This document shows positions 10,566 through 34,116 of a DNA stretch of 45,247 bases, piece by piece; position 1 is the stretch's first letter; each line of letters starts with the position of its first letter. Made by a program: the position numbers and the translations under genes. Below the pieces are notes generated by a model that saw only the letters and a program-made list of their open reading frames with translations, was not told the origin of the DNA and made no database searches. Source of the DNA: Planctomycetales bacterium (GTDB lineage Bacteria > Omnitrophota > Gorgyraeia > Aquiviventales > Aquiviventaceae); contig SBAZ01000013.1 in NCBI GenBank assembly GCA_005239935.1, positions 1 through 45,247 on the forward strand. Direction: 5' to 3'.

Positions 10566-10567
10566 GG

Positions 10568-14816: not shown

Positions 14817-15156
14817 GCACCGCCGCTTCGGCGGCCGGCGCCGCCGGCCGTCCGCTCGACTCCGCCACCTTGAGCTGCTCCTCGCAAAAGCGCATCCAGA
14901 GCATCGCCCGGTCCCGCTGCTGTGCGTGAAAGGCGCAGCGTGGGCACCGCAGCACGTCCCAGAGCCGCTGGTACCAGGCGGTCCGCGGTTCGCCGTAGAG
15001 CCAGAGGAAGAGGTGGTTCTCCAAAATCAGCTCGACATCCTCTCGCAGTTCCTTCGTCAGCATCGGGATGGGCCGGGCCTGGCCCTGCTGCAGCGCGTGC
15101 AGCGTGTGCAGACAGCGCTCGGTGATCACGGCCGCGGCGTTGCGGAAGCACCTCAT
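14809..15156 (-). CDS. Hypothetical small protein (115 aa) with a CxxC motif
   Basis: The composition is balanced (W, F, L, E-rich), unlike the shadow ORFs. It contains CPRC. The stop overlaps the downstream SDR start by 8 nt, and its own ATG overlaps the upstream stop (ATGA at 15153-15156). Confidence 0.5.
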   Translation of the reverse strand: MRCFRNAAAVITERCLHTLHALQQGQARPIPMLTKELREDVELILENHLFLWLYGEPRTAWYQRLWDVLRCPRCAFHAQQRDRAMLWMRFCEEQLKVAESSGRPAAPAAEAAVHA

Positions 15157-15335
15157 GCGCGACTCCCCATATAGATCGGCTCGGGCCGGCGCTTGCCGCA
15201 GTACGGGCAGAAACGGAAGCGCGCGATGCGCTCGTCGGTCCAGGCCTCGTCTTCAAAGACCAGAATGTGCCGGCGGTAGAGCTCCGAATACTTCAGGTGC
15301 TGGCAGCCCCGCCGCAGCAGCACAGCCAGTGTCAT
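15153..15335 (-). CDS. Hypothetical small protein (60 aa), zinc-ribbon-like (CxH...CxxC)
   Basis: MTLAVLLRRGCQHLKYSELYRRHILVFEDEAWTDERIARFRFCPYCGKRRPEPIYMGSRA. Third codon positions are mostly G/C. ATGA overlaps occur at both ends (15332-15335 and 15153-15156). Confidence 0.5.
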   Translation of the reverse strand: MTLAVLLRRGCQHLKYSELYRRHILVFEDEAWTDERIARFRFCPYCGKRRPEPIYMGSRA

Positions 15336-16333: not shown

Positions 16334-16343
16334 GGGTGCCGTG

Positions 16344-17360
16344 TCACCGCTCAGTCAAGAGTTCGTGAAGCGTGGATTCGACCGTTGCCGGGTCCCGCGC
16401 CGAGAAGTACCAGTCGATGGTGCGGTGCAGCCCGTCCCAGAATGTGACCGTAGGCCCCCAGTCCAGTAGCCGCTTCGCGAGCCGGTTGTCCGCCACGCGG
16501 TTCAGCGGGCCGGTGGGCATGTGCGGCGCGGTCTGGATCCTGGCCGTGTGGCCGGTGTACCGGAGAATTTCCTGCGCACATTCGATGACCTTGATGCGCT
16601 CCATGGTGCCGAGGTTGACCGCGGTGCCGTCCTCAATCCGCTCGCCGGCGAGGATCAGGCCGGAGACGATATCGTCCACATGGGTCCAGTTGCGGATCTG
16701 CTCCCCGGTGCCCCAGATGACGTACGGGTCCTCCTTGATGAACGCCCGCGCGATCATCGCGATCACCGCGTGGTTTTCATGGCCCCGCGGCCCGTAGACC
16801 GTGAAGAATCGGCACGAGGCCGACCTGAGCCCGCGTTCCTTGTAGTAGGCCTTCAGCGTCAGTTCGCCCATCAGCTTCGCCCACCCGTAGAGGTTGTCCG
16901 CGTCATATGGCGGGCCGACCATGTCCTCGGTCAGATACAGCTCCTTCGAGGGATCCATCTGGATGTAATTGGGATAGACGCACCCGGACGAGGCGAACAC
17001 CACCTTCTCCACGCCAGCGTCCGCGGCCAGTTTGAAGAGTTGGCCGTCCAGGATGAGGTTCGTGGAGCAGGCGACCTGGTGCAGGTCCACGTAGCCCCGG
17101 CCGCCATGGTCGGCCGCTAGGTGGAAGATGACCTGCATCCGCTCCACGGCCTGCCGCGCGACGGCCGGGTCCAGCAGGTCCGCTTGCCGGAAGTCCACGG
17201 TCTCGCGCTGCAGGTGCTCGCGCAGGTTTTCCAGCTTCCCGCTGGAGAGATTGTCCACGACGCGCACGCGAGCGCCCCGAGCCGCCAGCGCGTCCACCAG
17301 ATGCGACCCGATGAACGACGCCCCGCCGGTCACCAACACTCGCTTGCCGCTCCAGAACAT
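16344..17360 (-). CDS. NAD-dependent epimerase/dehydratase (extended SDR)
   Basis: MFWSGKRVLVTGGASFIGSHLVDAL, YGWAKLMGE (YxxxK). Internal ATG at 17360 is preceded by GGAGAGAGG. The track ORF to 17432 adds Gly/Arg-rich residues. Confidence 0.8.
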   Translation of the reverse strand: MFWSGKRVLVTGGASFIGSHLVDALAARGARVRVVDNLSSGKLENLREHLQRETVDFRQADLLDPAVARQAVERMQVIFHLAADHGGRGYVDLHQVACSTNLILDGQLFKLAADAGVEKVVFASSGCVYPNYIQMDPSKELYLTEDMVGPPYDADNLYGWAKLMGELTLKAYYKERGLRSASCRFFTVYGPRGHENHAVIAMIARAFIKEDPYVIWGTGEQIRNWTHVDDIVSGLILAGERIEDGTAVNLGTMERIKVIECAQEILRYTGHTARIQTAPHMPTGPLNRVADNRLAKRLLDWGPTVTFWDGLHRTIDWYFSARDPATVESTLHELLTER

Positions 17361-17374: not shown

Positions 17375-19192
17375 TTAGTGCGCGCCGTGCCGGACAACCG
17401 CCACCAGGCGCCGCCCGCCTGCCACCGGCCACCGTTCAACCGTGCCGAATCCCGTCAAGAACTCCTCGCCGGCGCGGCCCACTTCAGACTCCGCCGTCAC
17501 GACGACATCCACCGGCCGCGTCCCTGGCGCGTAGATCGCCTGCCAGTCCAGCCGCATGTACCCCTCATCCGGATAGAGTGCCGCGATCTCCTTGGTGAAC
17601 CGGTAGCCGGTATAGAAACTTCCGGTCGCCAGCGCAGCCGACGGTTGCCGGACTGCCCCGTTGATCTGATACGCCACCACCGGCGAGCGTCCCATCCGGT
17701 GCGCCAGGACGCCGAGCCGGCGGTCGATCACCTGCTTTTCCGCCCATCCCTCGGCCACGAGCCGGTGATGTGCCTTCACATCCCGGACCGCCGCCCCGGC
17801 CAGCAACGCCAGCACTGCCACCGCGCCCGCGGCCGCGCTGCGGCGGATCCAGCCGGGCGGGCTGACCCAGGCCCGGGTCAGCCAGGCCAGCCCGGCGGCT
17901 GTCCCGACCGCGACCGGTGTCAGAAACCGCACCGCAGCGCCGCTGGCCGCATAGGAGACACCGTCCACCGCGTGATTCCTCAGCCCAGCCACCAACCCGA
18001 ACGTCAGACTCAGCAGCGCGATCACCCCGAGCCCGACCTCACCAGGATCCGGCCCGCGCGCTCTGAGCACCCAGGCCAGCCGGGCCGCGACCAGCCCGGT
18101 AATGAGCAGAACGGCCGCGGTCCAGCCTGGCACATCCCGGATCAGCTGGGCCAGCTCGGCAGCGATGACGCCGGCGCCCAACCGCGCCTCCGGTTGCCAG
18201 AACGCGCCGACGGTGGCATCCACCACATGGTGCAGCATTTCCCCGTATCGGTGGGCGGCGATGAACGTGGAAAGCAGCCAGCCTGCGGCCGCGCCCCCTG
18301 CCGCCTCAAGCGCAAACCGGAACATACCTTCCAGCCGCCGCCACGGCGCGGACCCCGGCCCACACAGGTGGCTCGCCAGACCCAACGCCCAGGCCAGCAG
18401 CAGCACCGGCTGGCCGATGTGGAGCACCGCCGCCAGCCGCGGCGAACTGCGCCAGAAATCTGTTGCCGCGATCAGGAGCGCAACCCCCACGACACCGGCC
18501 AGCCAGGCCGCCAGTATCGGCCAGGTGAGACGGCACCGCGCCGGCTGCCGCGCGGCCCACAGCCACCCCATGGCCGCGCAGCCGGCCAGCACTGCTGCCG
18601 CGACCGGCAGATAGACGATCTTGACGGCGCACGCCAGGCCGGCCCAGGCCCCGGCGGCGAAGAGCTGCCGGGTCTGCGGCGGCTGTCCCGGGCGACAGGC
18701 GTCGAGCAGGCTCGCCCAAAGCAGCAACCCGACTGCCACCAGGAACATCTCAGAACTCCAGTAGGTGGCGTACATCAGCGATGACGCATGGAGAAACGGC
18801 ACGCCAAGGATCGCGGCCCGCAGCAGCCACGGCAGTTGGGTGGGCAGCGCCGCGGCGAAACGCCACAGGGCCGCGACGGTGGCTGCGAGCCCGATCGCGT
18901 ACGCCACGGCAAGAAAACGCGCCAGCGCGTCGAGACGCGTGCCCAACAACCGCGTCAGTGCGGCGCCGAGCACATACACCGGAGTTCCCGGGTGGTACGC
19001 CAGCTCCGGGGGCTGCCCGCGCGCCACCTGGAAGCTGTTGAACGCGAAATCCATCTCCACATCAGTGGACATGATCCAGTACGGCCGCGGTATCACCAGC
19101 ACTTTGTAGGCCCAGACCGATGCCAGCAGCAGGGCGATCACCGCGAACGCCGAAACCCGTGGCCGCATGGCGTGCGCGGAGGCCCCGGTCAT
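17375..19192 (-). CDS. Polytopic membrane protein, probable GT-C-fold (GT39/GT83, PMT_2/ArnT-like) glycosyltransferase
   Basis: More than 10 hydrophobic segments. The first loop, STDVEMDFAFNSFQVARGQPPELAYHPGTPVYVLGA, resembles the acidic loop plus HPPL motif of ArnT/PMT_2 enzymes. About 130 aa at the C-terminus look soluble. ATGA overlap with the upstream stop at 19189-19192. Confidence 0.5.
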   Translation of the reverse strand: MTGASAHAMRPRVSAFAVIALLLASVWAYKVLVIPRPYWIMSTDVEMDFAFNSFQVARGQPPELAYHPGTPVYVLGAALTRLLGTRLDALARFLAVAYAIGLAATVAALWRFAAALPTQLPWLLRAAILGVPFLHASSLMYATYWSSEMFLVAVGLLLWASLLDACRPGQPPQTRQLFAAGAWAGLACAVKIVYLPVAAAVLAGCAAMGWLWAARQPARCRLTWPILAAWLAGVVGVALLIAATDFWRSSPRLAAVLHIGQPVLLLAWALGLASHLCGPGSAPWRRLEGMFRFALEAAGGAAAGWLLSTFIAAHRYGEMLHHVVDATVGAFWQPEARLGAGVIAAELAQLIRDVPGWTAAVLLITGLVAARLAWVLRARGPDPGEVGLGVIALLSLTFGLVAGLRNHAVDGVSYAASGAAVRFLTPVAVGTAAGLAWLTRAWVSPPGWIRRSAAAGAVAVLALLAGAAVRDVKAHHRLVAEGWAEKQVIDRRLGVLAHRMGRSPVVAYQINGAVRQPSAALATGSFYTGYRFTKEIAALYPDEGYMRLDWQAIYAPGTRPVDVVVTAESEVGRAGEEFLTGFGTVERWPVAGGRRLVAVVRHGAH

Positions 19193-21110: not shown

Positions 21111-21992
21111 TCACCGCCCTCCGGAGCCGAGAATGTCGGCGAATACCCGCTCGCGCCGCCGGAAATACCAGGCGCCGCCGAGGAACAGCACCCCGGAGGC
21201 CCCGGCCGAGACCGCGAGCACTGGGCCCGGGGCGGTGCCGACACCGAAGAGCGCCCACCGGAAACCCTCCACGACGCCAACCATCGGGTTGAGTGCGTAG
21301 AGCGGCCGCCATGCCAGAGGCACCATACTGCTCGGATAGACGACTGGCGTGACGAACAACCACAGCTGGGTCAGAAACGGCAGCACGTACCGGACATCAC
21401 GGTACTCGAGGTTCAGCGCCGACAGCCAGAAGCCCAGGCCGAGCGACGTCATCAGCATCAGGAGGACGAACGACGGCAACCAGACAATGCCGAGGGTGGG
21501 CGCCAGGCCGTAGTACACCATGAGGCCCACGAGCAGGATCGAGGCGATGGCAAAATCCACCAGTGCGGCGAGCACCGTGGAAAGCGGCACGAGCAGCCGC
21601 GGAAAATAGACGCGGGTGATCAGGCGTTGGTCCGCCAGCAGGCTGCCGGCTGATTCGGACAGCGCCCGGGAGAAGATCTGCCACGGTAACAGGCCAGCGT
21701 ATGCGAACACGGGATACGGGATCCCCTCGGACGGCAACTGCGCCAACTGGCCGAAAAAGAGCGTGAACACGAGCATCATGGACAGCGGCTGCGCCACGGC
21801 CCAGGCGATGCCGATGGCTGTCTGCTTATAGCGCACCTTCAAGTCCCGCCAGACGAGGAAATAGGCGAGTTCGCGGTACCGCCACAGGTCCCGCAGTCCC
21901 AGGCTGAAGCCCCGGGTTGCACGGATGTCGATCACCTCTGGCGGCAGCCTGGGAGCCCATGCGTTGGCCTCGGACATCGTGGCTGTTGTCAT
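21111..21992 (-). CDS. wzm: ABC-2 type polysaccharide exporter permease (Wzm/KpsM/TagG-like)
   Basis: [35 protein letters not shown] is the ABC-2 signature region, followed by six hydrophobic segments. ATG at 21992 forms an ATGA overlap with the uxs stop. Confidence 0.85.
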
Positions 21993-22939
21993 GACTTCGC
22001 GAGTGCCTGCGCGTGCTGGCGAAACCATCCGATGGTCGCCGCCAGGCCCTCCCGAACCGGCACGCGCGGCCGCCACCCCGTTAACCGGGTAATCGTGGCC
22101 AGGTCCGGCCGGCGCTGCTTCGGGTCATCCGTCGGCAGGGGGCGGAATTCGATCCGGCTGCCAGCGCCGTTGACGAGCTCCAACACCAATTTGGCCAGTT
22201 CCAAAATGGTCCATTCCTCAGGATTCCCCACGTTCACCGGGTCGGGATGTGCCACGTCCATAAGCCCGCGGATTCCCTCCACTAGGTCATCGACATAGCA
22301 GAGGCTGCGTGTCTGCCCGCCGTCGCCGTACACGGTCAGGGCCTCGCCGCGCAGGGCCTGGCTGATGAAGTTCGGGATGGCGCGGCCATCGTTCAGGCGC
22401 ATCCGCGGCCCGTAGGTGTTGAAAATGCGGACGATGCGGGTATCGATCCCGTGTTCCCGGTGGTAGGCCATCGTCAGCGCCTCCGCGAACCGCTTGGTCT
22501 CGTCATAGACGCCGCGCGGCCCCACGGGGTTGACCCGGCCCCAGTACGTCTCCGGCTGGGGATGGACTTCCGGGTCCCCATAGACCTCCGACGTCGAGGC
22601 CAGCATGAACCTGGCTCCCTTCGCCTTGGCCATGCCCAGCATATTCAGCGTGCCGAGGGAGCCGACCTTCAGCGTCGGAATGGGATACTTGAGGTAGTCC
22701 GGGGGGCTGGCTGGTGAAGCAAAATGGAGGATATAGTCCACGGGTGCCGGCAGGTCAAGCGGCTTGCTGATGTCGTGCTGGAGGAAGCGGAACCGGCGCC
22801 CGGCGCGCAAGTGGGCCACGTTGCTCTGCGTGCCGGTGATGAAGTTGTCCACGCACACGATGTCGTGGTCGTCGCGCAGCAACCGCTCGCAGAGATGCGA
22901 CCCGATGAACCCTGCCCCGCCGGTGATGAGGACCTGCAT
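21989..22939 (-). CDS. uxs: UDP-glucuronate decarboxylase (UDP-xylose synthase)
   Basis: [88 protein letters not shown]. All are UXS hallmark blocks. Confidence 0.9.
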
Positions 22940-23322: not shown

Positions 23323-24579
23323 TCATTGTCGCGTGAAGACAACAGCCCCCTGCTCGTGGCGAGGATGCACCGCCCCGACGGCCGCCAGGCGGTCGGCCAC
23401 GTGCCGGGCGATTGCCAGGCAGGCTGTCGCGGCGGGTGAGGGGGCATTCCGCACGAAGACTGCCCCGGGCTGTTCGACCAGGTCGAAGTCGTCGAGCAAC
23501 CGTCCGTCCGCCCCCACCGCCTGCGCCCGCACCCCGCTGCCCCCAGGCCGCAGATCGCTTGCGCGGATCTCGGGGACCAGCCGCTGGACCGACCGCACCA
23601 ACGCGCGCCGGCTCCAGGATCGGTAGGCTTCGCTCAGTCCTGCGCGCCAGAAGCGCCGCGTCATCCGCCAAAAGCCGCCAAACCGCGCGAGCTCACTGAG
23701 GTCCTGCCAATCCCAGTCGGTGCGCGTGTAGCCCTCCCGCTTGAGTGCGAGGACCGCGTTGGGCCCGACGTGCACCGTTCCGTCCACCGTGCGCGTCACG
23801 TGCACGCCGAGAAATGGCAGTTGGGGATCCGGCACCGGGTAGATCATCCCGCGCACGAGCGCCCGACGCTCCGGCACCAGGTCGTAGTAGTCGCCGCGGA
23901 AGGGCACGATGCGCACGTCGTCCTCCCCGCCGGCGGTGCGCGCCAGGCGGTCGGCAAAGAGCCCGGCGCAGCTCACCAGGCTGCGCGTGCCGAGCGCTCC
24001 ACGGTCAGTCTCCACGACCCACCCATCGGCCTGGGGGGCGACACGCCGGACGTTCGTGGACGTGCGGATCTCGGCGCCGCGGTGCATGGCGCCGTCCCCG
24101 AGTGCGCGCGCGACGCGGCCGAAGTCCACCACGGCCGCACCCGGCACGTGGAGGGCGTGCAGGCCAGCCGCATGCGGCTCCACATCCCGCAGGCGGTCCG
24201 GGCCGATCAGCGCCAGGTCCGGCACCCCGTTCGCCTGCCCGCGCTCGTACAGGGCGCGCAGCCGCGGCACCTCCTCAGGTGTGGTGGCCACGATGACCTT
24301 CCCCACGACCGCGGTCGGAATGCCGTGTTCCTGGCAGAACTCCAGGAGACGCCGGCGGCCCTCCAGGCACAGTGCGGCCTTGAGCGAGCCCGGGCGGTAG
24401 TAGATGCCGGAGTGGACGACGCCGCTGTTGTGCGTGGTCTGGTGCGCGCCGAGGGAGGACTCTTTCTCGAGGACGACGACCCGGCACCCGGGCCGGCGCG
24501 CCGTGAGTTCGGCCGCCACCGCCAGACCGACGATGCCGCCGCCGATCACCACGACGTCCGCCGCGGGATGGTCCGGCAT
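23323..24579 (-). CDS. lhgO: FAD-dependent L-2-hydroxyglutarate oxidase/dehydrogenase family (LhgO-like)
   Basis: MPDHPAADVVVIGGGIVGLAVAAEL (FAD GxGxxG), HQTTHNSGVVHSGIYYRPGSLKA (LhgO hallmark), VRNAPSPAATA. Internal ATG at 24579, 14 nt after the upstream stop. The 127-aa extension in the track ORF is Arg/Ala-rich. Confidence 0.8.
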   Translation of the reverse strand: MPDHPAADVVVIGGGIVGLAVAAELTARRPGCRVVVLEKESSLGAHQTTHNSGVVHSGIYYRPGSLKAALCLEGRRRLLEFCQEHGIPTAVVGKVIVATTPEEVPRLRALYERGQANGVPDLALIGPDRLRDVEPHAAGLHALHVPGAAVVDFGRVARALGDGAMHRGAEIRTSTNVRRVAPQADGWVVETDRGALGTRSLVSCAGLFADRLARTAGGEDDVRIVPFRGDYYDLVPERRALVRGMIYPVPDPQLPFLGVHVTRTVDGTVHVGPNAVLALKREGYTRTDWDWQDLSELARFGGFWRMTRRFWRAGLSEAYRSWSRRALVRSVQRLVPEIRASDLRPGGSGVRAQAVGADGRLLDDFDLVEQPGAVFVRNAPSPAATACLAIARHVADRLAAVGAVHPRHEQGAVVFTRQ

Positions 24580-24593
24580 GGGCGTGACGACCC

Positions 24594-25706
24594 TCACCTC
24601 GCGCTCAGCGCGCGCTGCACCGTCGCGACGACGCGGGTGATCGTTCCGCGCGCCATCTCGGGATACAGTGGCAGCGACAGTACCTGCCGCGCCGCGGCCT
24701 CGGCGGCCGGAAGCCGCTCGTGCCGCCGCCTCCGGAGCGCGGGCTGCGCCGGGACCGTCGAGGGGTAGGCGACTTGGCAGGCGATGCCGGCCGCGGCGAG
24801 TGCGCGCTGCACGCGGTCGCGGCGCGGCGTGCGGATCGTGTAGAGCGCATACGCGTGTCGGGTTCCTGGCCGCTCCTGCGGCAGTGCGTGGCGCGGCAGC
24901 CCTGTGCGCTGCAACAGCGATGTGTACGCGGCCGCGTGGCGGCGCCGGGCCGCATTCCATCCCCGCAGATGGTGCAGCTTCACCCGGAGAATCGCTGCTT
25001 GCAGTTCATCCAACCGGCTGTTGGTCCCGACGGCCAGGTGCCGGTACCGCGCGTGGCTGCCATGCGCCCGGAGGAGCCGGACCTGTTCGGCAAGCCTGGC
25101 GTCGCTCGTGACGACCATCCCCGCATCCCCATAGGCTCCGAGGTTCTTGCTTGGGTAGAAGCTCAGACAACCCGCCGCGCCGAAACTCCCGACCGGCCGC
25201 CCACCCTGCGCCGCGCCCAGTGCCTGCGCGCAGTCCTCAACCAGCACCAGCCCGCGGGCGCGCGCCAGAGCGCCCAGCGCGCGCATGTCGCAGGGATGCC
25301 CGTACAGGTGTACTGGGAGGAGCGCGCGGGTCCGGCGCGTCAGCCGGCGGCGGACGTCCTGTGGATCGAGGGTGTAGGTGGCCGCGTCGATGTCCGCGAA
25401 GACCGGGGTTGCGCCGACCGCCAGGATCGCTTCAGCCGTCGCAAAGAAGGTAAAGCCGCTCGTGATGACCTCGTCGCCCGAGCTGATGCCGGCGGCGCGC
25501 AACGCGAGGATCAGCGCATCGGTGCCCGAGGCCACCGCGACGGCGTAGCACGTCCCGCAGAAGGCCGCCACCTCTCGTTCGAGCGCCTCGACTTCCGGGC
25601 CAAGGATGAACTGCCCGCTGGCCAGCACGCGGCGGATGGCCGCGTCAACAGCTGGCTTCAGCGAGCGGTACTGCGCCTGCAGGTCTACAAGCGGGATCGT
25701 CGGCAT
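24594..25706 (-). CDS. DegT/DnrJ/EryC1/StrS-family PLP-dependent sugar aminotransferase
   Basis: MPTIPLVDLQAQYRSLKPAVDAAIRRVLASGQFILGPEVEALEREVAAFCG..., ASGTDALILALRA, FYPSKNLGAYGDAG (catalytic Lys). Internal ATG at 25706. Confidence 0.85.
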   Translation of the reverse strand: MPTIPLVDLQAQYRSLKPAVDAAIRRVLASGQFILGPEVEALEREVAAFCGTCYAVAVASGTDALILALRAAGISSGDEVITSGFTFFATAEAILAVGATPVFADIDAATYTLDPQDVRRRLTRRTRALLPVHLYGHPCDMRALGALARARGLVLVEDCAQALGAAQGGRPVGSFGAAGCLSFYPSKNLGAYGDAGMVVTSDARLAEQVRLLRAHGSHARYRHLAVGTNSRLDELQAAILRVKLHHLRGWNAARRRHAAAYTSLLQRTGLPRHALPQERPGTRHAYALYTIRTPRRDRVQRALAAAGIACQVAYPSTVPAQPALRRRRHERLPAAEAAARQVLSLPLYPEMARGTITRVVATVQRALSAR

Positions 25707-25743
25707 GCAACGCGCGGGGGCTGCTGGACGGACGGGCCGGCGC

Positions 25744-26694
25744 CTAGCGCCGCGGCACTGGGGGATGCTCCTTGAACCACGCGACGGTGCGTGTGAGGCC
25801 CTCGGCGAACCGCACCGAGCCCTTCCACTTGAGTAACTTGGAGGTTTTGGCCGGGTCCACCAGCGTGCGCCGGACATCGCCGGGACGCGGCGGCACGTGC
25901 TTCGGCGGAACCGAGAGGCCCAGGATCGCATTCAGCTCCCTCAGGATGTCGAGCACGGTGTTCTCCTCTCCGAGCGCGATGTTGAGCACTTCCCCGCCGA
26001 GACCGGGAACTTCCGAGGCCAGGATGGTCGCCTCGACGACGTTCTGGACGTACGTGAAGTCCCGCGACTGCAGCCCGTCCCCGTAGACCGGAGGAGATTC
26101 TTTCCGCAGCAGGCAGTAGATAAATTTCGGAATGACCACGGCGTACTCATCTTCCAGGCTCTGGCGGGGGCCGAAGACGTTGAAGTACCGCAGCGACACC
26201 GTCTCGAGGCCGAAGGCCCGGTAGAACATCTCGCAGACGACCTCGCCGGCGAGCTTGGACGAGCCGTAGGGGGACACCGGATGGACCGGGTGGTCCTCCC
26301 GCTGCGGGAAGAGCGTGGTTTCCCCGTACACCGAACTGGAGGACACGCACACGGCGCGCTGCACCTTGGCCTTGATGGCCTCCTCCAGCATGCCGGTCAC
26401 CGCCAGGGCGTTCACCTCCATGTAGCCGGAGGGGTCCTTCATGGACTTCGGCACGCTGCGCCAGGCCGCCTCGTGGATGATGCGCTCGATGCCCTGCATC
26501 GCCTTCGCCATGAGCGCCCGGTCGCGGATGTCGCCCTGGAGAAACTCGATGCGGTCCTTGACCTGCGCCAGATTCTCGGGTCGGCCGGAGGAGAGATCGT
26601 CGACCACCCGCACCTGATGGCCCTTCGCCACGAGCGCATCCACCACATGGGAGCCCACGAACCCTGCGCCGCCAGTCACCAGGTACCGTGCCAT
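25744..26694 (-). CDS. UDP-sugar 4-epimerase (WbpP/TviC-like extended SDR)
   Basis: MARYLVTGGAGFVGSHVVDAL, SSSSVYG, YGSSKLAGE, LRYFNVFGPRQ, PVYGDGLQSRDFTYV. It lies directly downstream of the TviB-like dehydrogenase. Confidence 0.75.
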   Translation of the reverse strand: MARYLVTGGAGFVGSHVVDALVAKGHQVRVVDDLSSGRPENLAQVKDRIEFLQGDIRDRALMAKAMQGIERIIHEAAWRSVPKSMKDPSGYMEVNALAVTGMLEEAIKAKVQRAVCVSSSSVYGETTLFPQREDHPVHPVSPYGSSKLAGEVVCEMFYRAFGLETVSLRYFNVFGPRQSLEDEYAVVIPKFIYCLLRKESPPVYGDGLQSRDFTYVQNVVEATILASEVPGLGGEVLNIALGEENTVLDILRELNAILGLSVPPKHVPPRPGDVRRTLVDPAKTSKLLKWKGSVRFAEGLTRTVAWFKEHPPVPRR

Positions 26695-26708
26695 GATCCG
26701 CGGATCCG

Positions 26709-29516
26709 TTACAGCGGTACGACGCGACGCGCGCGCCGTCCCTGGGCTCCAAAATGGTTCCGGGTGTCCACAATGACGCGGGCGTGGCGCAGGACCTGGT
26801 CGTAGTCCACGTGTGTGTGGTTGGTCAGCAGGACCACGCAGTCGGCCCCGCGCAGCTGGGCAGGGGTCAGCGGGACCGACCGCTGCACCTGGCCGTTCAG
26901 CTCGGCGGTCGGCACGTGCGGGTCATGGTAGCGGACGACCGCGCCGCGCTCGGCGAGGTGCTTCACGACGTCGAAGGCTGGGGAGTCGCGCGTATCGCTG
27001 ACGTCCTTCTTATAGGCCAGTCCAAGCAGGAGCACGACGGCCCCCTTCAGCGCCCGGCGACGCTCGTTGAGGATGCGGCCCACGCGCTCCGCGACGACTT
27101 CGGGCATGCCGCCGTTAATCTGTGTGGCGAGCTCAATGAAGCGCGCCTCATAGCCGTGCACCCGCACCTTCCACGCCAGATACATGGGGTCCGATGGAAT
27201 GCAGTTGTGCACAATAATGCCATAACTCGTGACGAACGTATGGGTCGTGTCCACTTCGGCGGAATACACCATGCGGCGTCCCCGCTCCGTACGACGCTCC
27301 CGCAACGGCACCCCGACGTAGCCGTCGTACCTGCGGAACGAGCGGTTCGGCATGCGCTTGACATGCCCGTTCAGATACCCCAAGAGCCTCCGACGCTTGT
27401 GCCCATCAAGCCATCCGGCGCATCGGCGTACCTGTGTCTCGCCCGTGATGTAGAGGAGGTTCGGCCGGCGCTTGAAGCTCGGCACAATGCCCGATCCCTG
27501 TAATAGCAGAACCACTTGCTGAAAGAGCCGAGGATTCACGGTGTAGTAGTTCACCACGCCACGGTTGACGCGCGTGCGATACCATCGTCCGCGCTTCATG
27601 GCCACGCGCCAGCCGTGCGCCGTCTCCACCCCGCCGTCACCGCGCAGGAGTCCAGCCAGGACCGCCTCACGGTGCCTGACGCTCAACCCGAACACCACGT
27701 CAGGAATCCGCATCGAATAGGAGTCGATGCCACAGCGCAAGGCATCCCGAAGCAGGATGCCGAAAGGCACGCACGACACCTTCACATGGGAGGTCCGCCA
27801 CTGCCGATCGTCGAAGGTGCTCCAACGAAACCCTAGACCATTCAGAATCCGTTTGACGTCCTCCAGGTATTCGCGCTCCGCTCGATTGAATGAGAACCGG
27901 ACACGCAGGGATTCGTCCTCCGTGATGCACCCCTCGCTCAGGTAGTAGCCGAGGAGGCGGCACACGTCTTCGGTCAGATCGATGACCGCCGGGCAGGCGG
28001 TCCAAGATGGTCCTTTGCCGGACGTCAGTCGCACCTCACGGTGATCGACCGCGGGAAATCCCGGCTGCCGACGGGCCTCAAGGTAGGCAGCCAGTGGAAT
28101 CGCGTTGCGCCGATAATACTCCCAGGGGTCTCGGCGGTACCGCTTCAGCACCGGCCGCAGCCATGGACGGAATCGCTTCCAGGACCACCCGTTCGGCATA
28201 ATCCGGATCCGTTCACGATATGCCGGGTGGCCCGCGAAATGCTCAATCAGATCCACCGCGTGCTGCGGGACCCCCTGGGGTAGCGAGTCCATCACGACCA
28301 ATTCATCGCTCGCCAGGACGTCCTGCGCAAACTTGACACCCAATCGCCCATTCTGGATGACCATGGGGTGCCGGTTCGTGACGCGCAATTCGCGGCCGTC
28401 CCCGGCGCGCAAGTGCACCATCGGGCCGTCATAGGGCCTGGAGACAAGCCACTGCAAGGGCCGAAAGATGCTTTTGCGGCGTTTCAGGTCAAACGACAGT
28501 GTCTGAAGCCCCCGCGGCCGGATGAACGTCATGCCCTGGCGCCGGTGGACACGTTCGGGCTGCTCCATTGCCAGCTGATGAAACGCCTCTTTGAAACTGG
28601 TCACCTCCACGGTCTCCCCGCGTTTCAGCACAAGAATCTCGCGTCCATCCAGGCAATGCCCACCGATGCCAGGGCCGGGATAAAACGGCATAAACCCGAA
28701 CGGCTTCGTGCGCGCCCCTTCGATGACCTCCCAGACGTTGATGCCGAGGCGGTCACAGATGAGGGCGATCTCGTTGACCAAGCCGATATTCACGGCCCGG
28801 AAGGTGTTCTCGAGGATCTTGACCATCTCCGCGGTCTTCGCCGAAGACACCGGCACCGTCTTATGGATGACCGAGCCGTAGAGGGCGGCCGCCAACTGCG
28901 TGCACGCCGGCGTGGCCCCACCGACCACCTTCGGAATGGTCCGCGTCGTGTAGGTGGCGTTGCCCGGATCGATGCGCTCCGGCGAGAAGGCGAGTGCAAT
29001 GTCCCGGCCGACCTTCAGTCTACGCGCCTCGAGCGCGGGCTGCACGACTTCTTCGGTCGTGCCGGGGTACGTGGTGCTCTCAAGGACGATCAGCTGCCCG
29101 CGGCGCGCCCGGCGCGCAATCTCCTGTGTGGCCGAGAGGATGTAGGACATGTCCGGCTCGCGCGTCTTCCGCAGGGGGGTGGGGACACAGATGATGATGG
29201 CGTCCTGGGTCGCCAGGCCCGCGAAGGAGGTGCTCGCGCTCAAGCGGCGCCCCTTGCGCGCCGCGGCCAGGTCCTCGCTCGAGACATCCTCGATGTACGA
29301 GCGCGCGCTCAGCACGCCGCGCACGCGCCGCTTGTCCGGGTCGAACCCCGTCACCCGGAAGCCTTCCTTGGCGAACTCGACCGCCAACGGCAGACCGACG
29401 TACCCAAGGCCCAAGACCCCGACGCGCGCGGTCCGGCGCTCGATGCGCCGCGCCAGACGGGCCAGCGGCGGCGAGAGGGTTTTCCGTACCGCCTTCTTCG
29501 AGCGTCGGCTCGGCAT
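26709..29516 (-). CDS. UDP-N-acetyl-hexosamine 6-dehydrogenase family (TviB/WbpO/WecC-like), intein-containing precursor
   Basis: VGVLGLGYVGLPLAVEFAKEGF (NAD fold), IIICVPTP, LESTTYPGTTE, then PGPGIGGH|intein|CIPSDPMYLAWK, and a C-terminal LGLAYKKDVSDTRDSPA. ATG at 29516 lies 5 nt after the rfbB stop. 935 aa, of which 451 aa are extein. Confidence 0.85.
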   Translation of the reverse strand: MPSRRSKKAVRKTLSPPLARLARRIERRTARVGVLGLGYVGLPLAVEFAKEGFRVTGFDPDKRRVRGVLSARSYIEDVSSEDLAAARKGRRLSASTSFAGLATQDAIIICVPTPLRKTREPDMSYILSATQEIARRARRGQLIVLESTTYPGTTEEVVQPALEARRLKVGRDIALAFSPERIDPGNATYTTRTIPKVVGGATPACTQLAAALYGSVIHKTVPVSSAKTAEMVKILENTFRAVNIGLVNEIALICDRLGINVWEVIEGARTKPFGFMPFYPGPGIGGHCLDGREILVLKRGETVEVTSFKEAFHQLAMEQPERVHRRQGMTFIRPRGLQTLSFDLKRRKSIFRPLQWLVSRPYDGPMVHLRAGDGRELRVTNRHPMVIQNGRLGVKFAQDVLASDELVVMDSLPQGVPQHAVDLIEHFAGHPAYRERIRIMPNGWSWKRFRPWLRPVLKRYRRDPWEYYRRNAIPLAAYLEARRQPGFPAVDHREVRLTSGKGPSWTACPAVIDLTEDVCRLLGYYLSEGCITEDESLRVRFSFNRAEREYLEDVKRILNGLGFRWSTFDDRQWRTSHVKVSCVPFGILLRDALRCGIDSYSMRIPDVVFGLSVRHREAVLAGLLRGDGGVETAHGWRVAMKRGRWYRTRVNRGVVNYYTVNPRLFQQVVLLLQGSGIVPSFKRRPNLLYITGETQVRRCAGWLDGHKRRRLLGYLNGHVKRMPNRSFRRYDGYVGVPLRERRTERGRRMVYSAEVDTTHTFVTSYGIIVHNCIPSDPMYLAWKVRVHGYEARFIELATQINGGMPEVVAERVGRILNERRRALKGAVVLLLGLAYKKDVSDTRDSPAFDVVKHLAERGAVVRYHDPHVPTAELNGQVQRSVPLTPAQLRGADCVVLLTNHTHVDYDQVLRHARVIVDTRNHFGAQGRRARRVVPL
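27204..28655 (-). mobile_element. Intein A (484 aa) with a LAGLIDADG homing-endonuclease domain
   Basis: It starts with Cys (CLDGREILV), has block B TxxH (VTNRHP), carries LAGLIDADG motifs LLGYYLSEGC and VLAGLLRGDGG, and ends IIVHN followed by the +1 Cys. Codon arithmetic was checked against the sequence at both junctions. Confidence 0.85.
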
Positions 29517-29521
29517 CGGCC

Positions 29522-30556
29522 TCAGTCTGCCCGCGCCGTGTCTGTTCGCGCCGCGCGGGGCTCCGCGGAATCGAGCCAGTGGTACGACTCCTCGCGCAGC
29601 CCCGCCACAAGCGGCAGCCACCAGTCGGCGTGGTGTCGATACCAGGTGACGGTCCGCGCGAGTCCCTCACGGAACTCTGTCGCCGGCGCCCAGCCAAGTG
29701 CACGCAGCTTCGAATCCTCCACTCCATAGCGCCAGTCATGCCCCGGCCGGTCCGGTACGTGCTGGAGCAACCCGGACCCGCAGCCGACAAGTTGCAGCAC
29801 CGCGGTCGCTGTCTGCAGATTGGCCGCCTCGTGACCGCTCCCGATATTGTAGATCTCACCGGGTTCGCCGCACGACACCAATACCTCGAGCGCCCGGCAG
29901 AGATCCTCCACGAAGAGCCAGCTGCGGCGCTGCGAGCCATCGCCGTAGAGTGGAATGGGCTGCTGTTCGAGCGCCCGCGTGATGCACAGGGGAATGAATT
30001 TCTCCGGGAACTGGCCGGGCCCATACGCATTGGTCGGCCGCGCGACCACGACCGGCACGCCATAGCTGTGATGGTACGCGAGGACGAATCCGTCGGCTGC
30101 GGCCTTGCTCGCGGCGTACGGACTGCGCGGCGCCAGCCGTGCGGTCTCATTCACCTCACCGGACAGCATCGGCCCGTAGACCTCATCAGTACTCACATGC
30201 AGAATGCGCTCGACCCCCGCCCGCCGCGCCTCCTCCAGCAGGACCCTGGTACCCTCTACATTGGTGCGCACGAACGGGGCTGCGTTCGTGATGGAGCGGT
30301 CCACGTGGGTTTCTGCCGCGCAGTGCACGACGACCTGACAACCAGCCACCGCCATGGCAACCTGCCGTGGGTCTGTCACGTCTCCGCGCACCAGCCGGTA
30401 GCCCGTCAGCCTCGCCACATCCTCCACACGCGCGGTGGACGCCGCATACGTCAATACGTCGAGGTTGACGATCTCGTCCCCGGGATGTGTTGCCCGCCAC
30501 CGGCGGATAACATGCGAGCCGATGAAGCCGCACCCACCGGTCACCAGGATGCGCAT
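29522..30556 (-). CDS. rfbB: dTDP-glucose 4,6-dehydratase
   Basis: MRILVTGGCGFIGSHVIR, VVHCAAETHVDRSI, HVSTDEVYG, SPYAASKAAAD, YGPGQFPEKFIPL, LYGDGSQRRSWLFVED. The start shares 1 nt with the rfbA stop (TGATG at 30554-30558). Confidence 0.9.
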   Translation of the reverse strand: MRILVTGGCGFIGSHVIRRWRATHPGDEIVNLDVLTYAASTARVEDVARLTGYRLVRGDVTDPRQVAMAVAGCQVVVHCAAETHVDRSITNAAPFVRTNVEGTRVLLEEARRAGVERILHVSTDEVYGPMLSGEVNETARLAPRSPYAASKAAADGFVLAYHHSYGVPVVVARPTNAYGPGQFPEKFIPLCITRALEQQPIPLYGDGSQRRSWLFVEDLCRALEVLVSCGEPGEIYNIGSGHEAANLQTATAVLQLVGCGSGLLQHVPDRPGHDWRYGVEDSKLRALGWAPATEFREGLARTVTWYRHHADWWLPLVAGLREESYHWLDSAEPRAARTDTARAD

Positions 30557-31320
30557 CACTGCACCTGGGCCGGCTCGGCGCCAATGGCATCGCCGCGACC
30601 CGCCCTCGTCTTCTGCCGAACCAGCGCCGTGGCCCGGAAGAGGCTCTCCGGATGCCCGGCGTCCGTCCACCAGCCCTCGAGGACGTCGTGGTGCATCCGC
30701 CCGCGGTCGATGTAGAGGTTGTTCACATCGGTGATCTCCATCTCCCCCCGCGTCGACGGCCGCAGCGCCCGGATCATGTCGAATACCTCGGTGTCATACA
30801 TGTAGACGCCCGCAACGGCGTACGGTGACGGCGGATCTTTGGGTTTCTCGTGGATGCGAATCACGCGCTCCTCCTTCAACTCCGCCACCCCAAACCGCCA
30901 CGGGTCTTCGACCTCCTTCAACAGCACCCGAGCCCCTTCGCGCTGAGCGGCAAACCGTTCCACATACGCGCCGATGCTGCGCTCCAGGATGTTGTCTCCT
31001 AGGATGACGATGATCCGTTCCCCGCCCGCGAAGTGCTCCGCGAGGCTCAGCGCATCTGCAATGCCTCCCTCCCCCCGCTGGTAGGTATAGTCCAAATGCT
31101 TGAGGCCGAAGTCCTCTCCATTGCCAAGCAGGCGAAGAAAATCGCCCGCATTGTTGCCGCCGGTCACAAGCAGAATCTCGCGAATGCCCGCGTCGACCAG
31201 CGTTTGGATGGGATAGTACACCATCGGCCGGTCATAGACCGGCAAGAGATGCTTGTTGGTGATCCGCGTCAGTGCACCGAGCCGCGTCCCCAACCCGCCA
31301 GCCAAGACGACACCCTTCAT
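30556..31320 (-). CDS. rfbA: Glucose-1-phosphate thymidylyltransferase-type sugar nucleotidyltransferase (short form)
   Basis: MKGVVLAGGLGTRLGALTRITNKHLLPVYDRPMVYYPI, ILGDNI. ATGA overlap with the ugd stop (31317-31320). It lies immediately upstream of rfbB. Confidence 0.8.
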   Translation of the reverse strand: MKGVVLAGGLGTRLGALTRITNKHLLPVYDRPMVYYPIQTLVDAGIREILLVTGGNNAGDFLRLLGNGEDFGLKHLDYTYQRGEGGIADALSLAEHFAGGERIIVILGDNILERSIGAYVERFAAQREGARVLLKEVEDPWRFGVAELKEERVIRIHEKPKDPPSPYAVAGVYMYDTEVFDMIRALRPSTRGEMEITDVNNLYIDRGRMHHDVLEGWWTDAGHPESLFRATALVRQKTRAGRGDAIGAEPAQVQ

Positions 31321-34055
31321 GATCCCGAGCGCTCCGTCCCGCGTCCAACTCCGACGTAGGTGAACCCGAGCTTACGCATCTGCTCCGGCTCGTAGATGTT
31401 GCGTCCGTCGAGGAGCAGCGGCCGGCGCAGCAGTTTCTTGATGCGCCCGAAGTCGAGCTCCTTGAACTCGTTCCACTCCGTGACAACGGCCAGGCAGTCC
31501 GCGCCCCGCGCCGCCTCATACGGGTCCTTGCACATGGTCACCTTCGGCAGCAGATGGGCCGCTTCCTTCATGGCCTGCGGGTCGAAGGCCTTGACGGTCG
31601 CGCCCTCGTCCTGCAGCGCTTCGATGATGTCGATGGCGGGTGCATAGCGCATGTCATCCGTGTTGGGCTTGAACGCCAGCCCCAGGACCCCCACCGTCTT
31701 GCCCTTCAAGTTCCAGAGCGCGCGCTTGAGCTTGGCCACGAAACTCCGCTTGGCTTCCTCGTTGATCTTGCGCACCGCCTTGAGGAGCTCGAAGTCGTAG
31801 CCCAGCGTCTCCGCGATCTTGATAAAGGCGTCCACGTCCTTCGGAAAGCAGTTGTGGACAACCAAGCCGGTTCCGGCTACTAAGAGTTGATTGTCCGTCT
31901 CTACACTGTAGACGTACGTGCGGTCCTCGTAGGCCTTCACACGCCGGACCGGCAAGAGCACGTATCCCGGCCGGCGCCGGAATCCGCGCTGCCTGATCCG
32001 GCGCTGATACCGCCCCAAGGCCTGGTCAATCCGCCGGCGCTTCGCTGGCCCAAATACGTCTCGCAGCGATCGGAGCTGCTCAAGACCGCTGACACGCAGA
32101 ATATACGCGGGCCGAGTGGACTGGTTCATCCATCGCTCGTGCAGCGAGGGGACGATCCCCAGCGACTGCAGCAGCAGCACCACGCCTTCGGCCAACGCCT
32201 TGCTGGTCGTCGCGTACTCAAACACCACGTTCCGCCCACCCTGGAGCGCGGTGATGGAACCATCCCCGCTAAAGAGCCCCTGCAGCAAGGCCCGTCGCAG
32301 TCGAGGGGGGACGTTAAACGCGATGGTCGGCAGTCGCTTATCATGGGAGCTCGTCCCGCACTGCAGCACATCCCGCACCAGCCACGCCAAGAGTCTGCTC
32401 GACACGACAGTCGAGACGGCACCAGGAAACCAGACGACGTCGAACCGGATGCCGTAGCGATGCAGCATGGCATGGAGATCCCTCACATAGCCGCGCTCGT
32501 GTCGCCCGAACGAGATCCCAAGGCGCTCGCGAACCCCTCGCGCCCCTGATTCAGCCGAAATCCAGCCCTCCGCGAGGTAGTAGCCCAGCCAGCGCAGGAG
32601 CCTGGCATCCACCGGAAAGACTGCGGGAATCGTTGTCGCCTTGCCTCGTGCCGTGAAGAGCCGGATGCGCGACGGCTCGACCTGCAGTCCGCGAGCCTCC
32701 TGCAGATGTCGGTACACGCCCCACGCCATGACGCCATGGCGCGCGACGTCATACGGAGACTTAGCAAGCGTGCGGGGAATCGCCCCCAGCCAGCGGCTAG
32801 GAATACGCTCAAACGCTCCATCGGTCGCACGCAACCGCACCGAGAGTGCGGTACCACGCCGCTCGAGGGTTTCTAAGACATTGATCGTCCGTGCGGGCTC
32901 CAGCGTTGGAAGCCTTGTCGGGCTCACCAAGAGGTCGCCCTCGCGCACATCTCGTGCCTCGCGGATCTCAAGCGCCGTGGACCTCTCGTGCGCCACCATG
33001 ATCGGGTGATTGGCCGTCACGCGGACACGGCGCCCCATCATGGTTTCGAGTTCGACAAAGGGCCCCTCATACCATCGGCGCGTCAGACATCGAATGCCTG
33101 TCAGCGTGGCCCGGCGGCGTGTCTGGTCGAACGACAGCATCCGTCCACCTGCTGGCACCGCCACGTCAACCTCTTCCACGCGGCCGGCAACCGGATGCCG
33201 AGCGAAGATGTCCTGGAAGCGCTGCACGCTCACATGGGGACTGTTGAGCATGTACGTCGATTCCGTCCCCTCAAAACAAAACCCGCCGTAGCCGACGCCT
33301 GCATTGAGGAACGAGCGGCCGATGCGCGGATCCAGCCCCATGCCGTGGGCCACCTGCTGGATGTCGGCGCCGGAGCGCTCGCACACCTGGGCCACCGCAT
33401 TGATGAACGAAATCTTCATGGAGAGGAAGGAGTTCGACGCGTGCTTGATGAGTTCGGCGCTGGCGATATCGGTGACGACGATCGGGCAGCCGAAGGGCTT
33501 GTAGAGCTCGGTGAGCAGCTGTTTCGCCTTGGCGCTCTCCACCCCGAGGACCACGCGGTCCGGCTTCATCGTGTCCTGGATGGCCGTTCCCTCGCGAAGG
33601 AACTCGGGGTTCGAGGCGACGTCGAAGGGCACCTTGCGCTTGCGGTAGGTCTTGATGGTGTGGTACACCCAGGCCCCGGTCTGGACCGGCACGGTGGACT
33701 TTTCCACGATGAGGCGGTAGCTCGTCATGTGCTCCGCGATGCCGCGCGCCACCGCCTCGACATACGTGAGATCGGCCTCGCCGGTGTCCCGCTGGGGTGT
33801 GCCCACGGCGATGAAGAGGATGAGGGACTTCGCGACCGCCTCTTTCACCGATGCGGTGAACGTGAGCCGCTGCTCCTTCACGTTCCGGTGCACGAGTTCC
33901 TCAAGCCCCGGCTCGTAGTAGGGCATGAGGCCGCGTTTGAGGTTGGCGATGCGCTTCGCATCGTTGTCGAGCATGGTGACTCGGTTGCCCAGGTCGGCGA
34001 AGACCGCCCCGCTGACCAGGCCGACATGCCCGGCCCCAACGACACAGAGATTCAT
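31317..34055 (-). CDS. ugd: UDP-glucose 6-dehydrogenase, intein-containing precursor
   Basis: MNLCVVGAGHVGLVSGAVFADLG, LFIAVGTP, NPEFLREGTAIQD, GVGYGGF|intein|CFPKDVDAFIK, LGLAFKPNTDDMRYAP. ATG at 34055 is preceded by AGAGGA. 912 aa, of which 436 aa are extein. Confidence 0.9.
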   Translation of the reverse strand: MNLCVVGAGHVGLVSGAVFADLGNRVTMLDNDAKRIANLKRGLMPYYEPGLEELVHRNVKEQRLTFTASVKEAVAKSLILFIAVGTPQRDTGEADLTYVEAVARGIAEHMTSYRLIVEKSTVPVQTGAWVYHTIKTYRKRKVPFDVASNPEFLREGTAIQDTMKPDRVVLGVESAKAKQLLTELYKPFGCPIVVTDIASAELIKHASNSFLSMKISFINAVAQVCERSGADIQQVAHGMGLDPRIGRSFLNAGVGYGGFCFEGTESTYMLNSPHVSVQRFQDIFARHPVAGRVEEVDVAVPAGGRMLSFDQTRRRATLTGIRCLTRRWYEGPFVELETMMGRRVRVTANHPIMVAHERSTALEIREARDVREGDLLVSPTRLPTLEPARTINVLETLERRGTALSVRLRATDGAFERIPSRWLGAIPRTLAKSPYDVARHGVMAWGVYRHLQEARGLQVEPSRIRLFTARGKATTIPAVFPVDARLLRWLGYYLAEGWISAESGARGVRERLGISFGRHERGYVRDLHAMLHRYGIRFDVVWFPGAVSTVVSSRLLAWLVRDVLQCGTSSHDKRLPTIAFNVPPRLRRALLQGLFSGDGSITALQGGRNVVFEYATTSKALAEGVVLLLQSLGIVPSLHERWMNQSTRPAYILRVSGLEQLRSLRDVFGPAKRRRIDQALGRYQRRIRQRGFRRRPGYVLLPVRRVKAYEDRTYVYSVETDNQLLVAGTGLVVHNCFPKDVDAFIKIAETLGYDFELLKAVRKINEEAKRSFVAKLKRALWNLKGKTVGVLGLAFKPNTDDMRYAPAIDIIEALQDEGATVKAFDPQAMKEAAHLLPKVTMCKDPYEAARGADCLAVVTEWNEFKELDFGRIKKLLRRPLLLDGRNIYEPEQMRKLGFTYVGVGRGTERSGS
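31851..33278 (-). mobile_element. Intein B (476 aa) with a LAGLIDADG homing-endonuclease domain
   Basis: It starts with Cys (CFEGTESTY), has block B TxxH (VTANHP), carries LAGLIDADG motifs WLGYYLAEGW and LLQGLFSGDGS, and ends LVVHN followed by the +1 Cys of CFPKD. Both junction codons were verified in the sequence (tgt at 33278..33276; aac at 31853..31851). Confidence 0.85.
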
Positions 34056-34116
34056 GGTTCCATCCTCTTTGGAGGACGACACTTACGCGAAGCGCGTGCG
34101 TGGCACGAAGGCGCTA

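Follow-up and report, generated by a model that had tools for sequence, protein, structure and literature searches.

Introduction

Two paralogous nucleotide-sugar dehydrogenase genes that stand close together on one strand are each interrupted by an intein immediately ahead of the codon of the catalytic cysteine, and the question raised by this locus is whether one intein gave rise to the other where they now stand or whether each reached its gene separately. The locus lies in contig SBAZ01000013.1 of assembly GCA_005239935.1, which is filed under Planctomycetales bacterium and placed in Omnitrophota in the GTDB lineage; the whole stretch analyzed, 45,247 nucleotides (nt), is called the window here. 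The two host genes encode a UDP-glucose 6-dehydrogenase (Ugd) and a WecC-like dehydrogenase. A preliminary description of the window, made from the sequence alone, had offered ectopic homing between the paralogous sites and independent invasion by one intein lineage as possible origins of the pair. Based on our analysis, it is highly probable that these are two class-1 LAGLIDADG inteins of old, host-specific lineages, that both were resident before the split from related Omnitrophota, and that neither was copied from the other here.

Two inteins at the catalytic cysteine of paralogous enzymes

Both dehydrogenases carry a LAGLIDADG intein, and the coordinates first given for the two elements proved exact to the base when judged by Pfam matches, junctions and motifs (Table 1). 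Pfam finds Intein_splicing and LAGLIDADG_3 in both inserts (LAGLIDADG_3 at E = 1.7e-9 and 5e-21). With a slash marking the splice junction, the WecC intein reads ...GPGIGGH/CLDGRE...YGIIVHN/CIPSDPMYL... and the Ugd intein ...GVGYGGF/CFEGTE...TGLVVHN/CFPKDVDAF.... Cys1, the TxxH motif, the terminal His-Asn and both acidic LAGLIDADG residues are intact in the two inteins and are kept in 65 to 70 of 70 family members, Cys1 being invariant (70/70). As had been claimed, the inserts are homologous along their whole length: BLASTP aligns them over the full length at 30% identity (E = 8e-52), and a global alignment gives 33%. The similarity exceeds the generic splicing blocks, since the alignment also takes in the stretch that links the N-terminal Hint part to the endonuclease. 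From these sequence features, the best-supported assignment is that both inserts are canonical class-1 bifunctional inteins, each with a predicted Hint splicing domain in which a LAGLIDADG homing endonuclease is nested. The AlphaFold model of the Ugd intein (predicted local distance difference test, pLDDT, 88.6; predicted template modeling score, pTM, 0.88) places it in the Hint fold; its Foldseek matches were, in order, PI-PkoII (2cw7, E = 1e-28), TliVMA, PI-PfuI and PI-SceI, down to E = 1e-13. The WecC intein would belong to the same fold by its 30-33% full-length homology to the Ugd intein.

The insertion site is equivalent in the two paralogues, as the preliminary description had stated. 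PF03721, PF00984 and PF03720 (the NAD-binding, central and UDP-binding domains) are present in both proteins, and the PF00984 match is interrupted at profile position 65 of 94 in Ugd and the WecC-like protein alike. The spliced exteins are colinear, with 29-31% identity, and GYGGF-C-FPKD lies over GIGGH-C-IPSDP with Cys on Cys in one column. Removing the inteins restores the GGxCxxxD motif, as GGF-C-FPKD in Ugd and GGH-C-IPSD in the WecC-like protein. The Cys of GGxC we take to be the catalytic nucleophile, in line with established UDP-glucose dehydrogenase enzymology. Because the insert splits the central domain at this residue, it can soundly be inferred that both enzymes depend on splicing.

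Both spliced products pass TIGR03026. For the spliced Ugd, of 436 amino acids (aa), the best equivalog model is TuaD (577 bits against a cut-off of 700), and the best PDB matches are all UDP-glucose dehydrogenases, the closest being 4a7p (E = 1e-130). The closest equivalog models of the spliced WecC-like protein (451 aa) are UDP-N-acetylmannosamine (UDP-ManNAc) dehydrogenases, ahead of TviB, with scores below every equivalog cut-off (257-276 bits for the WecC models against 459 and 750; 213 for TviB against 592); 4r16 and Cap5O 3ojl are its closest PDB entries. The 451-aa product is therefore called WecC-like in sequence alone and is a candidate UDP-ManNAc-type dehydrogenase below the equivalog cut-offs.

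Splicing would follow the class-1 scheme. After translation, an N-S acyl shift at Cys1 would be followed by trans-thioesterification, with the catalytic Cys of the enzyme itself as the +1 nucleophile, and by cyclisation of the terminal Asn, and the exteins would be joined into a normal Ugd and a WecC-like dehydrogenase of the lengths given above. We infer from the sequences that both inteins splice, that both endonucleases work and that neither precursor is functional before splicing. Retention of the acidic endonuclease residues in 65-67 of 70 relatives likewise suggests that the endonucleases are under selection for activity.

The arrangement was also found independently. Contig L001, a Logan contig reached through its RmlA protein, is 99.99% identical to window positions 24702-33255 and covers the entire WecC-like gene with its intein plus most of the Ugd intein, so the two-intein arrangement is not an artefact of a single assembly.

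Host-specific intein lineages

Relatives of the two inteins fall into separate sets. Word-indexed searches gave two hit sets without overlap, the relatives of the Ugd intein all lying in .../CFPKD exteins and those of the WecC intein all in .../CIPxDP exteins. A profile search that covered 1.84 billion representatives gave 18,747 matches at E<1e-3, 564 of them below 1e-30; of the 150 top-ranked ones, about 32 were Ugd-hosted, about 31 WecC-hosted and a few of WbpA/TviB type (GLVGGH/C.../CIGVDPYY), and the nearest outsiders were inteins hosted by PurL. For pattern scanning the alignment of the two window inteins was used, an eight-sequence intein alignment being too divergent. A scan of viral contigs returned three weak partial matches only and no sign of a viral carrier.

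In a neighbor-joining tree (451 columns, 70 leaves, 100 bootstraps), the window Ugd intein is sister to the Ugd intein of L005 and the window WecC intein is sister to the WecC intein of L002, each with 100% bootstrap support; L002 and L005 are Omnitrophota metagenome-assembled genomes (MAGs). The Ugd-hosted inteins are monophyletic (79%), inteins in WbpA-type hosts are nested within the WecC-hosted group, and the smallest clade that unites the two window inteins holds at least 26 of the 70 leaves in all bootstrap trees. The block F position is occupied by Ser in all dehydrogenase-hosted inteins and by the canonical Asp in the PurL-hosted group. A single origin of the dehydrogenase-site inteins, followed by an old split into host-specific lineages, would fit these sequences.

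Of the two origins first proposed for the pair, independent invasion is thus the better fitting, as each window intein belongs to a host-specific lineage and is sister to an intein of the orthologous gene elsewhere. Ectopic homing between the two genes of this genome does not agree with inteins that are 30-33% identical in exteins that are 29-31% identical, nor with the size of the joint clade. By their sequences, the window inteins are distant cousins from separate, gene-specific lineages rather than copies of one another made here, and these lineages appear to be widespread, with Ugd-hosted and WecC-hosted inteins separate. Accounting for the distribution as a whole, a single large intein family would have the GGx/C site as its target in bacterial and archaeal members of the dehydrogenase superfamily, whether of Ugd, WecC/Cap5O or WbpA/TviB type, and each window intein would have been in its gene already in the ancestry common to the related Omnitrophota genomes. 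The inteins would then persist as selfish elements, since they sit at the codon under the strongest constraint in the host gene and any imprecise loss there would destroy the function of the enzyme.

The PurL-hosted inteins (YGN/C...HN/C[VI]GVPTVGG; L016-L030 and others) are exemplified by L026:6001-7443 from Tolypothrix tenuis PCC 7101. One cyanobacterial genome, that of Oscillatoria sp. HE19RPO, holds PurL-hosted and WecC-hosted members of the dehydrogenase-site intein family (L020 and L039).

Occupied, empty and mini-intein alleles in relatives

The window shares synteny and 68-81% identity with the two Omnitrophota MAGs, and on this similarity we base its placement in Omnitrophota. In L002 (GCA_030697665.1), the gene order TAL, LptD, ugd, rmlA, rmlB, wecC, epimerase, DegT is syntenic with that of the window. 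The L002 Ugd (431 aa, GGY-C-FPKD) has no intein, and the spliced window Ugd aligns with it at 76% identity over 431 aa with no indel at the junction. The WecC intein of L002 and the Ugd intein of L005 are 60% and 59% identical, respectively, to their counterparts in the window. Comparison of the window with these relatives gives 73-81% identity for the exteins and 59-60% for the inteins, so the inteins evolve faster than their hosts; at this amino-acid identity of the inteins, synonymous sites are saturated.

Intein-free alleles were found beyond L002 when relatives were surveyed. Among the eight fetched loci that show both gene types, six have an occupied WecC gene beside an empty Ugd gene and two have both genes occupied, namely the window (with its twin contig L001) and L125. 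The latter (Ga0164318_10005776, positions 1-5737, 37.8% GC) encodes ugd (with an intein, cut by the contig end), wecC (with an intein), an epimerase, a UXS-like protein and DegT. Its exteins are 42-53% identical to those of the window and its WecC intein 37%, making it a second, very divergent double-intein case. The reconstituted Ugd and WecC target sites of the window have 21 of 36 nt in common. Taken with the six loci in which WecC is occupied and Ugd is not, this speaks against easy crossing of the endonucleases from one paralogue to the other.

A third allelic state is represented by P0027, a metagenomic protein of 521 aa that is a WecC orthologue (70-73% identical) with a mini-intein of 192 aa. 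Relative to the window precursor, residues ~424-714 are deleted, and the whole endonuclease and DNA-recognition region is precisely gone. From their sequences, the relatives appear to display the usual homing cycle of occupied, empty and endonuclease-deleted mini alleles.

Two other loci deserve mention. In the metagenomic contig L003, positions 10001-12373 encode a Ugd with a shortened intein of 349 aa, and ~3 kb downstream (15113-17095) lies a UXS-like UDP-glucuronate decarboxylase gene with a second LAGLIDADG intein (15239-16651) at RIFN/TYGPRM; as both genes carry inteins, two consecutive enzymes of the UDP-xylose route are interrupted in this contig. The corresponding site is intact in the UXS-like gene of the window. 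In L004, an intein-bearing WecC gene (8986-11539) was called as two open reading frames (ORFs) in different frames (8986-9999 and 10001-11539), and the profile match breaks off within the intein; either the allele has suffered a frameshift and is decaying, or the sequence contains an error.

Base composition

The preliminary description had taken a lower GC content of the inteins as a hint of foreign origin, citing two 60-nt lines. A recount reproduces its figures (28/60 G+C in 27181-27240 and 43/60 in 26881-26940); the first of these lines spans the C-terminal junction of the WecC intein. Overall GC is lower than in the host only for the WecC intein (0.62 against 0.68 in the exteins), the Ugd intein showing no drop (0.64 against 0.63-0.65). 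At third codon positions (GC3), the difference holds for both: 0.76 against 0.88 in WecC (z = -4.6) and 0.75 against 0.89 in Ugd (z = -5.7). These two GC3 values are the lowest among the real genes of the window, and the Arg codons CGT, CGA and AGG are commoner in both inteins.

The GC3 dip is therefore real, but the foreign origin drawn from it is weak. The orthologous inteins dip as well (0.71 against 0.83-0.84 in the exteins of L002; 0.69 against 0.75-0.89 in L005), and the intein of the 38%-GC L125 has a GC3 of 0.30 against 0.33-0.36 in its exteins. The inteins thus track the composition of their own host genes across about 30 GC points, with a small standing offset. Because the orthologous inteins of L002 and L005 share the dip and the L125 intein is AT-rich like its host gene, the dip is no sign of recent import, and we reject the recent foreign origin drawn from GC. 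It fits a standing property of long-resident inteins, with long residence under weaker codon selection.

Alternative explanations

The two inteins occupy the same column, are homologous over their full length and stand close together, and their intein-less target sites share 21 of 36 nt, all of which would suit recent ectopic homing or gene conversion in this genome, with the endonuclease cutting the paralogous GGxC site and the intein being copied across 3.2 kb. Such an event is, however, very improbable: the inteins are just 30-33% identical, for each, a closer counterpart (59-60% identical, 100% bootstrap) resides in the orthologous gene elsewhere, the homologues all sort by host type, and the six loci with an intein-free Ugd beside an occupied WecC argue that crossing between paralogues is not easy. 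Identity and phylogeny together rule out intragenomic copying on a recent time scale, for which it is effectively refuted. The pair could instead date from before the Ugd/WecC duplication, an intein at the ancestral site having diverged along with the paralogues ever since; the near match between intein-intein identity (30-33%) and extein-extein identity (29-31%) speaks for this, as does the block F Ser common to all dehydrogenase-hosted inteins, where the PurL-hosted relatives have Asp. We give this scenario little chance, given that empty alleles occur even in a close relative (the L002 Ugd) and in six loci beside an occupied WecC, that the closely related inteins in the unrelated host PurL imply host switching, that WbpA-type hosts nest inside the WecC-hosted group, and that the long-range identities of inteins and exteins are weakly correlated (r = 0.13 and 0.40). 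To our knowledge, most members of the UDP-glucose/GDP-mannose dehydrogenase family are without an intein, which also counts against it.

The remaining alternatives concern function rather than origin. That the inteins no longer splice and both dehydrogenases are pseudogenes could be argued from the non-canonical Ser at block F and from the lack of the block F His in the Ugd lineage. Dead genes are scarcely credible here, with both reading frames open over 2.7-2.8 kb, the essential splicing residues all intact, exteins with 73-81% identity to their counterparts in relatives and with a high, host-like GC3, and the same block F variants kept in dozens of occupied alleles. Another thought is that the inteins were co-opted as a conditional (for example redox-sensitive) gate that releases active Ugd and WecC together and so keeps the two arms of glycan-precursor supply in step. 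In its favor, Cys stands at both nucleophile positions, and the one at +1 doubles as the catalytic thiol of the enzyme; splicing that depends on redox state by way of catalytic cysteines is known for other inteins, such as DnaBi1 of M. smegmatis (PMC6195587); and the double arrangement recurs in the very distant L125 in the same gene neighborhood. Nevertheless, we consider such a gate unlikely: the exteins have no extra Cys near either junction (GYGGF and GIGGH), the close relative L002 does without one of the inteins, only a minority of informative loci (2 of 8) have both genes occupied, and ordinary selfish dynamics agree with the conservation of the endonuclease residues and with the existence of a mini-intein derivative. 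In its more specific form, where the two inteins would be kept together as a coordinated redox- or stress-sensitive splicing switch acting through Cys1/Cys+1 to gate nucleotide-sugar supply for envelope glycans, and the recurrence in L125 would reflect selection, the proposal is distinctly unlikely.

Some observations weigh against the view that we prefer, of two old, host-specific lineages of functional inteins. The neighbor-joining trees use about 450 columns of very divergent sequences, and the deep branching, including monophyly of the WecC-hosted inteins, is weakly resolved. The poor long-range correlation of intein with extein identity bears on this view too, and in some long-range pairs the inteins match each other as well as the exteins do, or better; vertical descent therefore holds only locally, and over deep time the inteins must also have homed horizontally from one orthologous site to another. 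In L005, a key relative, the WecC gene is cut by the contig end. Finally, block F departs from the norm, with Ser in place of the Asp found in most inteins and, in the Ugd lineage, no usual His, both being family-wide variants.

Gene neighborhood

The two host genes belong to one tightly packed gene string, which the preliminary description had called an operon; the inteins are separated by 3195 bp, with rmlA and rmlB in between (Table 1). The gene order is LptD-like, ugd, rmlA, rmlB, wecC-like, epimerase and DegT aminotransferase, with the UXS-like decarboxylase, which likely consumes the Ugd product, further on. The epimerase/dehydratase gene also comes next after WecC in L002 and L125. Operon status is presumed from the tight spacing (-4 to +14 nt within the ugd/wecC string) and the common strand; a promoter and terminator scan of the gene string gave no signal above shuffles. 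Genes of the window lie nearly all on the minus strand and have a GC3 of 0.83-0.93.

Table 1. Positions of the host genes, their exteins and inteins, and neighboring genes in the window
Feature	Positions	Strand	Remarks
WecC-like nucleotide-sugar dehydrogenase precursor gene	26709..29516	-	935 aa; ATG 29516 is the likely start
WecC N-extein	28656..29516	-	ends ...GPGIGGH; GC3 0.89
WecC intein	27204..28655	-	484 aa; Cys1 ... His-Asn, then Cys+1
WecC intein block B	28362..28388	-	LRVTNRHPM; TxxH motif (VTNRH)
WecC intein LAGLIDADG motif 1	27930..27956	-	LLGYYLSEG; acidic Glu241; Glu kept in 67/70 family members
WecC intein LAGLIDADG motif 2	27633..27659	-	LAGLLRGDG; acidic Asp340; Asp kept in 65/70 family members
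WecC C-extein	26709..27203	-	starts with the catalytic Cys (CIPSDPMYL...); includes stop codon
WecC intein-less site			CCTGGCATCGGTGGGCAT/TGCATTCCATCGGACCCC
Ugd (UDP-glucose 6-dehydrogenase) precursor gene	31317..34055	-	912 aa; ATG 34055 is the likely start
Ugd N-extein	33279..34055	-	ends ...GVGYGGF
Ugd intein	31851..33278	-	476 aa; Cys1 ... His-Asn, then Cys+1
Ugd intein block B	33000..33026	-	VRVTANHPI (VTANH)
Ugd intein LAGLIDADG motif 1	32565..32591	-	WLGYYLAEG; acidic Glu237
Ugd intein LAGLIDADG motif 2	32259..32285	-	LQGLFSGDG; acidic Asp339
Ugd C-extein	31317..31850	-	starts with the catalytic Cys (CFPKDVDAF...); includes stop codon
Ugd intein-less site			GTCGGCTACGGCGGGTTT/TGCTTTCCGAAGGACGTG
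rmlA-like glucose-1-phosphate thymidylyltransferase	30556..31320	-	lies between ugd and the wecC-like gene; 4-bp overlap of its start with the ugd stop
rmlB, dTDP-glucose 4,6-dehydratase	29522..30556	-	passes TIGR01181; ends 5 nt ahead of the WecC start codon
NAD-dependent sugar epimerase/dehydratase	25744..26694	-	14 nt downstream of the WecC gene
DegT/PseC-type sugar aminotransferase	24594..25706	-	same gene string
UXS-like UDP-glucuronate decarboxylase	21989..22939	-	intein-free

The full ORFs of the host genes are longer than the genes listed. That of the WecC-like gene, 26709..29621(-), has 970 aa and reaches GTG 29621, the gene call in L001 being 935 aa; that of Ugd, 31317..34082(-), has 921 aa and reaches GTG 34082. 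Several ORFs of this high-GC window have long Arg/Ala/Pro-rich N-terminal extensions ahead of the conserved domain, for example over the initial ~130 aa of ORF 23323..24960(-), which encodes an FAD oxidoreductase, and over the initial 35 aa of the WecC ORF. Such extensions are most likely over-extended reading frames and not real protein. Another ORF, 17375..19192(-), encodes 605 aa with a gene-like GC3 of 0.84 and has no Pfam match at E<=1e-5; a comparable neighborhood in L002 encodes a PMT_2 glycosyltransferase-like protein of 603 aa.

Significance and comparison with known systems

The GGx/C site is exploited by inteins in bacteria of the Omnitrophota, Chloroflexota, Acidobacteriota, Planctomycetota, cyanobacteria and candidate phyla radiation (CPR). 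At least three paralogous dehydrogenase subfamilies are occupied by host-specific intein lineages, and two such lineages can share one gene string. With 21 of 36 nt in common between its paralogous target sites, and with occupied, empty and mini alleles in close relatives, the locus offers a compact natural system for gauging how far the specificity of LAGLIDADG enzymes restrains moves from one paralogue to another, and for asking whether a metabolic enzyme interrupted at its catalytic thiol is spliced conditionally. A literature search found no description of bacterial or Omnitrophota dehydrogenase inteins or of the double arrangement; sequence databases hold many such proteins. A Campylobacter phage paper that mentions both subjects of the search does so for unrelated genes and was set aside.

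Among characterized inteins, PI-PkoII, TliVMA, PI-PfuI and PI-SceI have the same Hint domain split by a LAGLIDADG endonuclease and a DNA-recognition region, and PI-PkoII also matches by sequence (E = 2e-15); these inteins are 12-20% identical to those of the window and differ from them in host and target site. Closest outside the dehydrogenase family are the PurL-hosted inteins of cyanobacteria, Nitrospira and Acidobacteriota (including Pyrinomonadaceae), which are colinear over 486 profile positions and have Cys1, HN and Cys+1. They differ in their unrelated host, in their site (YGN/C.../C[VI]GVPTVGG) and in having Asp rather than Ser at block F. Further conditional, redox-sensitive inteins are those of Pyrococcus abyssi PolII and MoaA. 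As in the M. smegmatis DnaBi1 intein (PMC6195587), the nucleophiles of the window inteins are Cys and could in principle be trapped in disulfides; a difference is that the extein residues next to the window inteins show no obvious partner Cys.

Homologous inteins at equivalent sites are also known from the MCM, DNA polymerase and Msh paralogues of Anaeramoeba, for which inter-paralogue transfer and independent acquisition were both discussed (PMC10710043). Those cases resemble the window in having related inteins at an equivalent site of ancient paralogues in one genome. The Anaeramoeba hosts are eukaryotic replication and repair proteins, whereas those of the window are prokaryotic metabolic enzymes, for which the phylogeny favors two long-separated host-specific lineages.

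The catalogued inteins of archaeal UDP-glucose dehydrogenases have the same host protein family as the window inteins, as compared by listing rather than by sequence. InBase lists a 'UDP GD' allele in, for example, Methanocaldococcus jannaschii, which would share the site of the window inteins and be related to them. Related inteins at the exact GGH/C site of the window WecC are present in two archaeal (DPANN) loci, L041 and L051. UDP-glucose dehydrogenase appears as an intein host in an InBase-based review (PMC2874743), the halobacterial 'udp' allele is an intein of UDP-glucose dehydrogenase (PMC4071816), and Novikova et al. (2016) counted 10 inteins in COG1004 of Euryarchaeota (PMC4760082). 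Relative to the archaeal UDP GD inteins, those of the window differ in that their hosts are bacterial (Omnitrophota-like) and that two paralogous subfamilies are occupied in one gene string. The locus is thus a good, if unexceptional, case of a familiar mobile element, with no new kind of element or mechanism, and a bacterial addition to the UDP-glucose dehydrogenase inteins already catalogued in Archaea.

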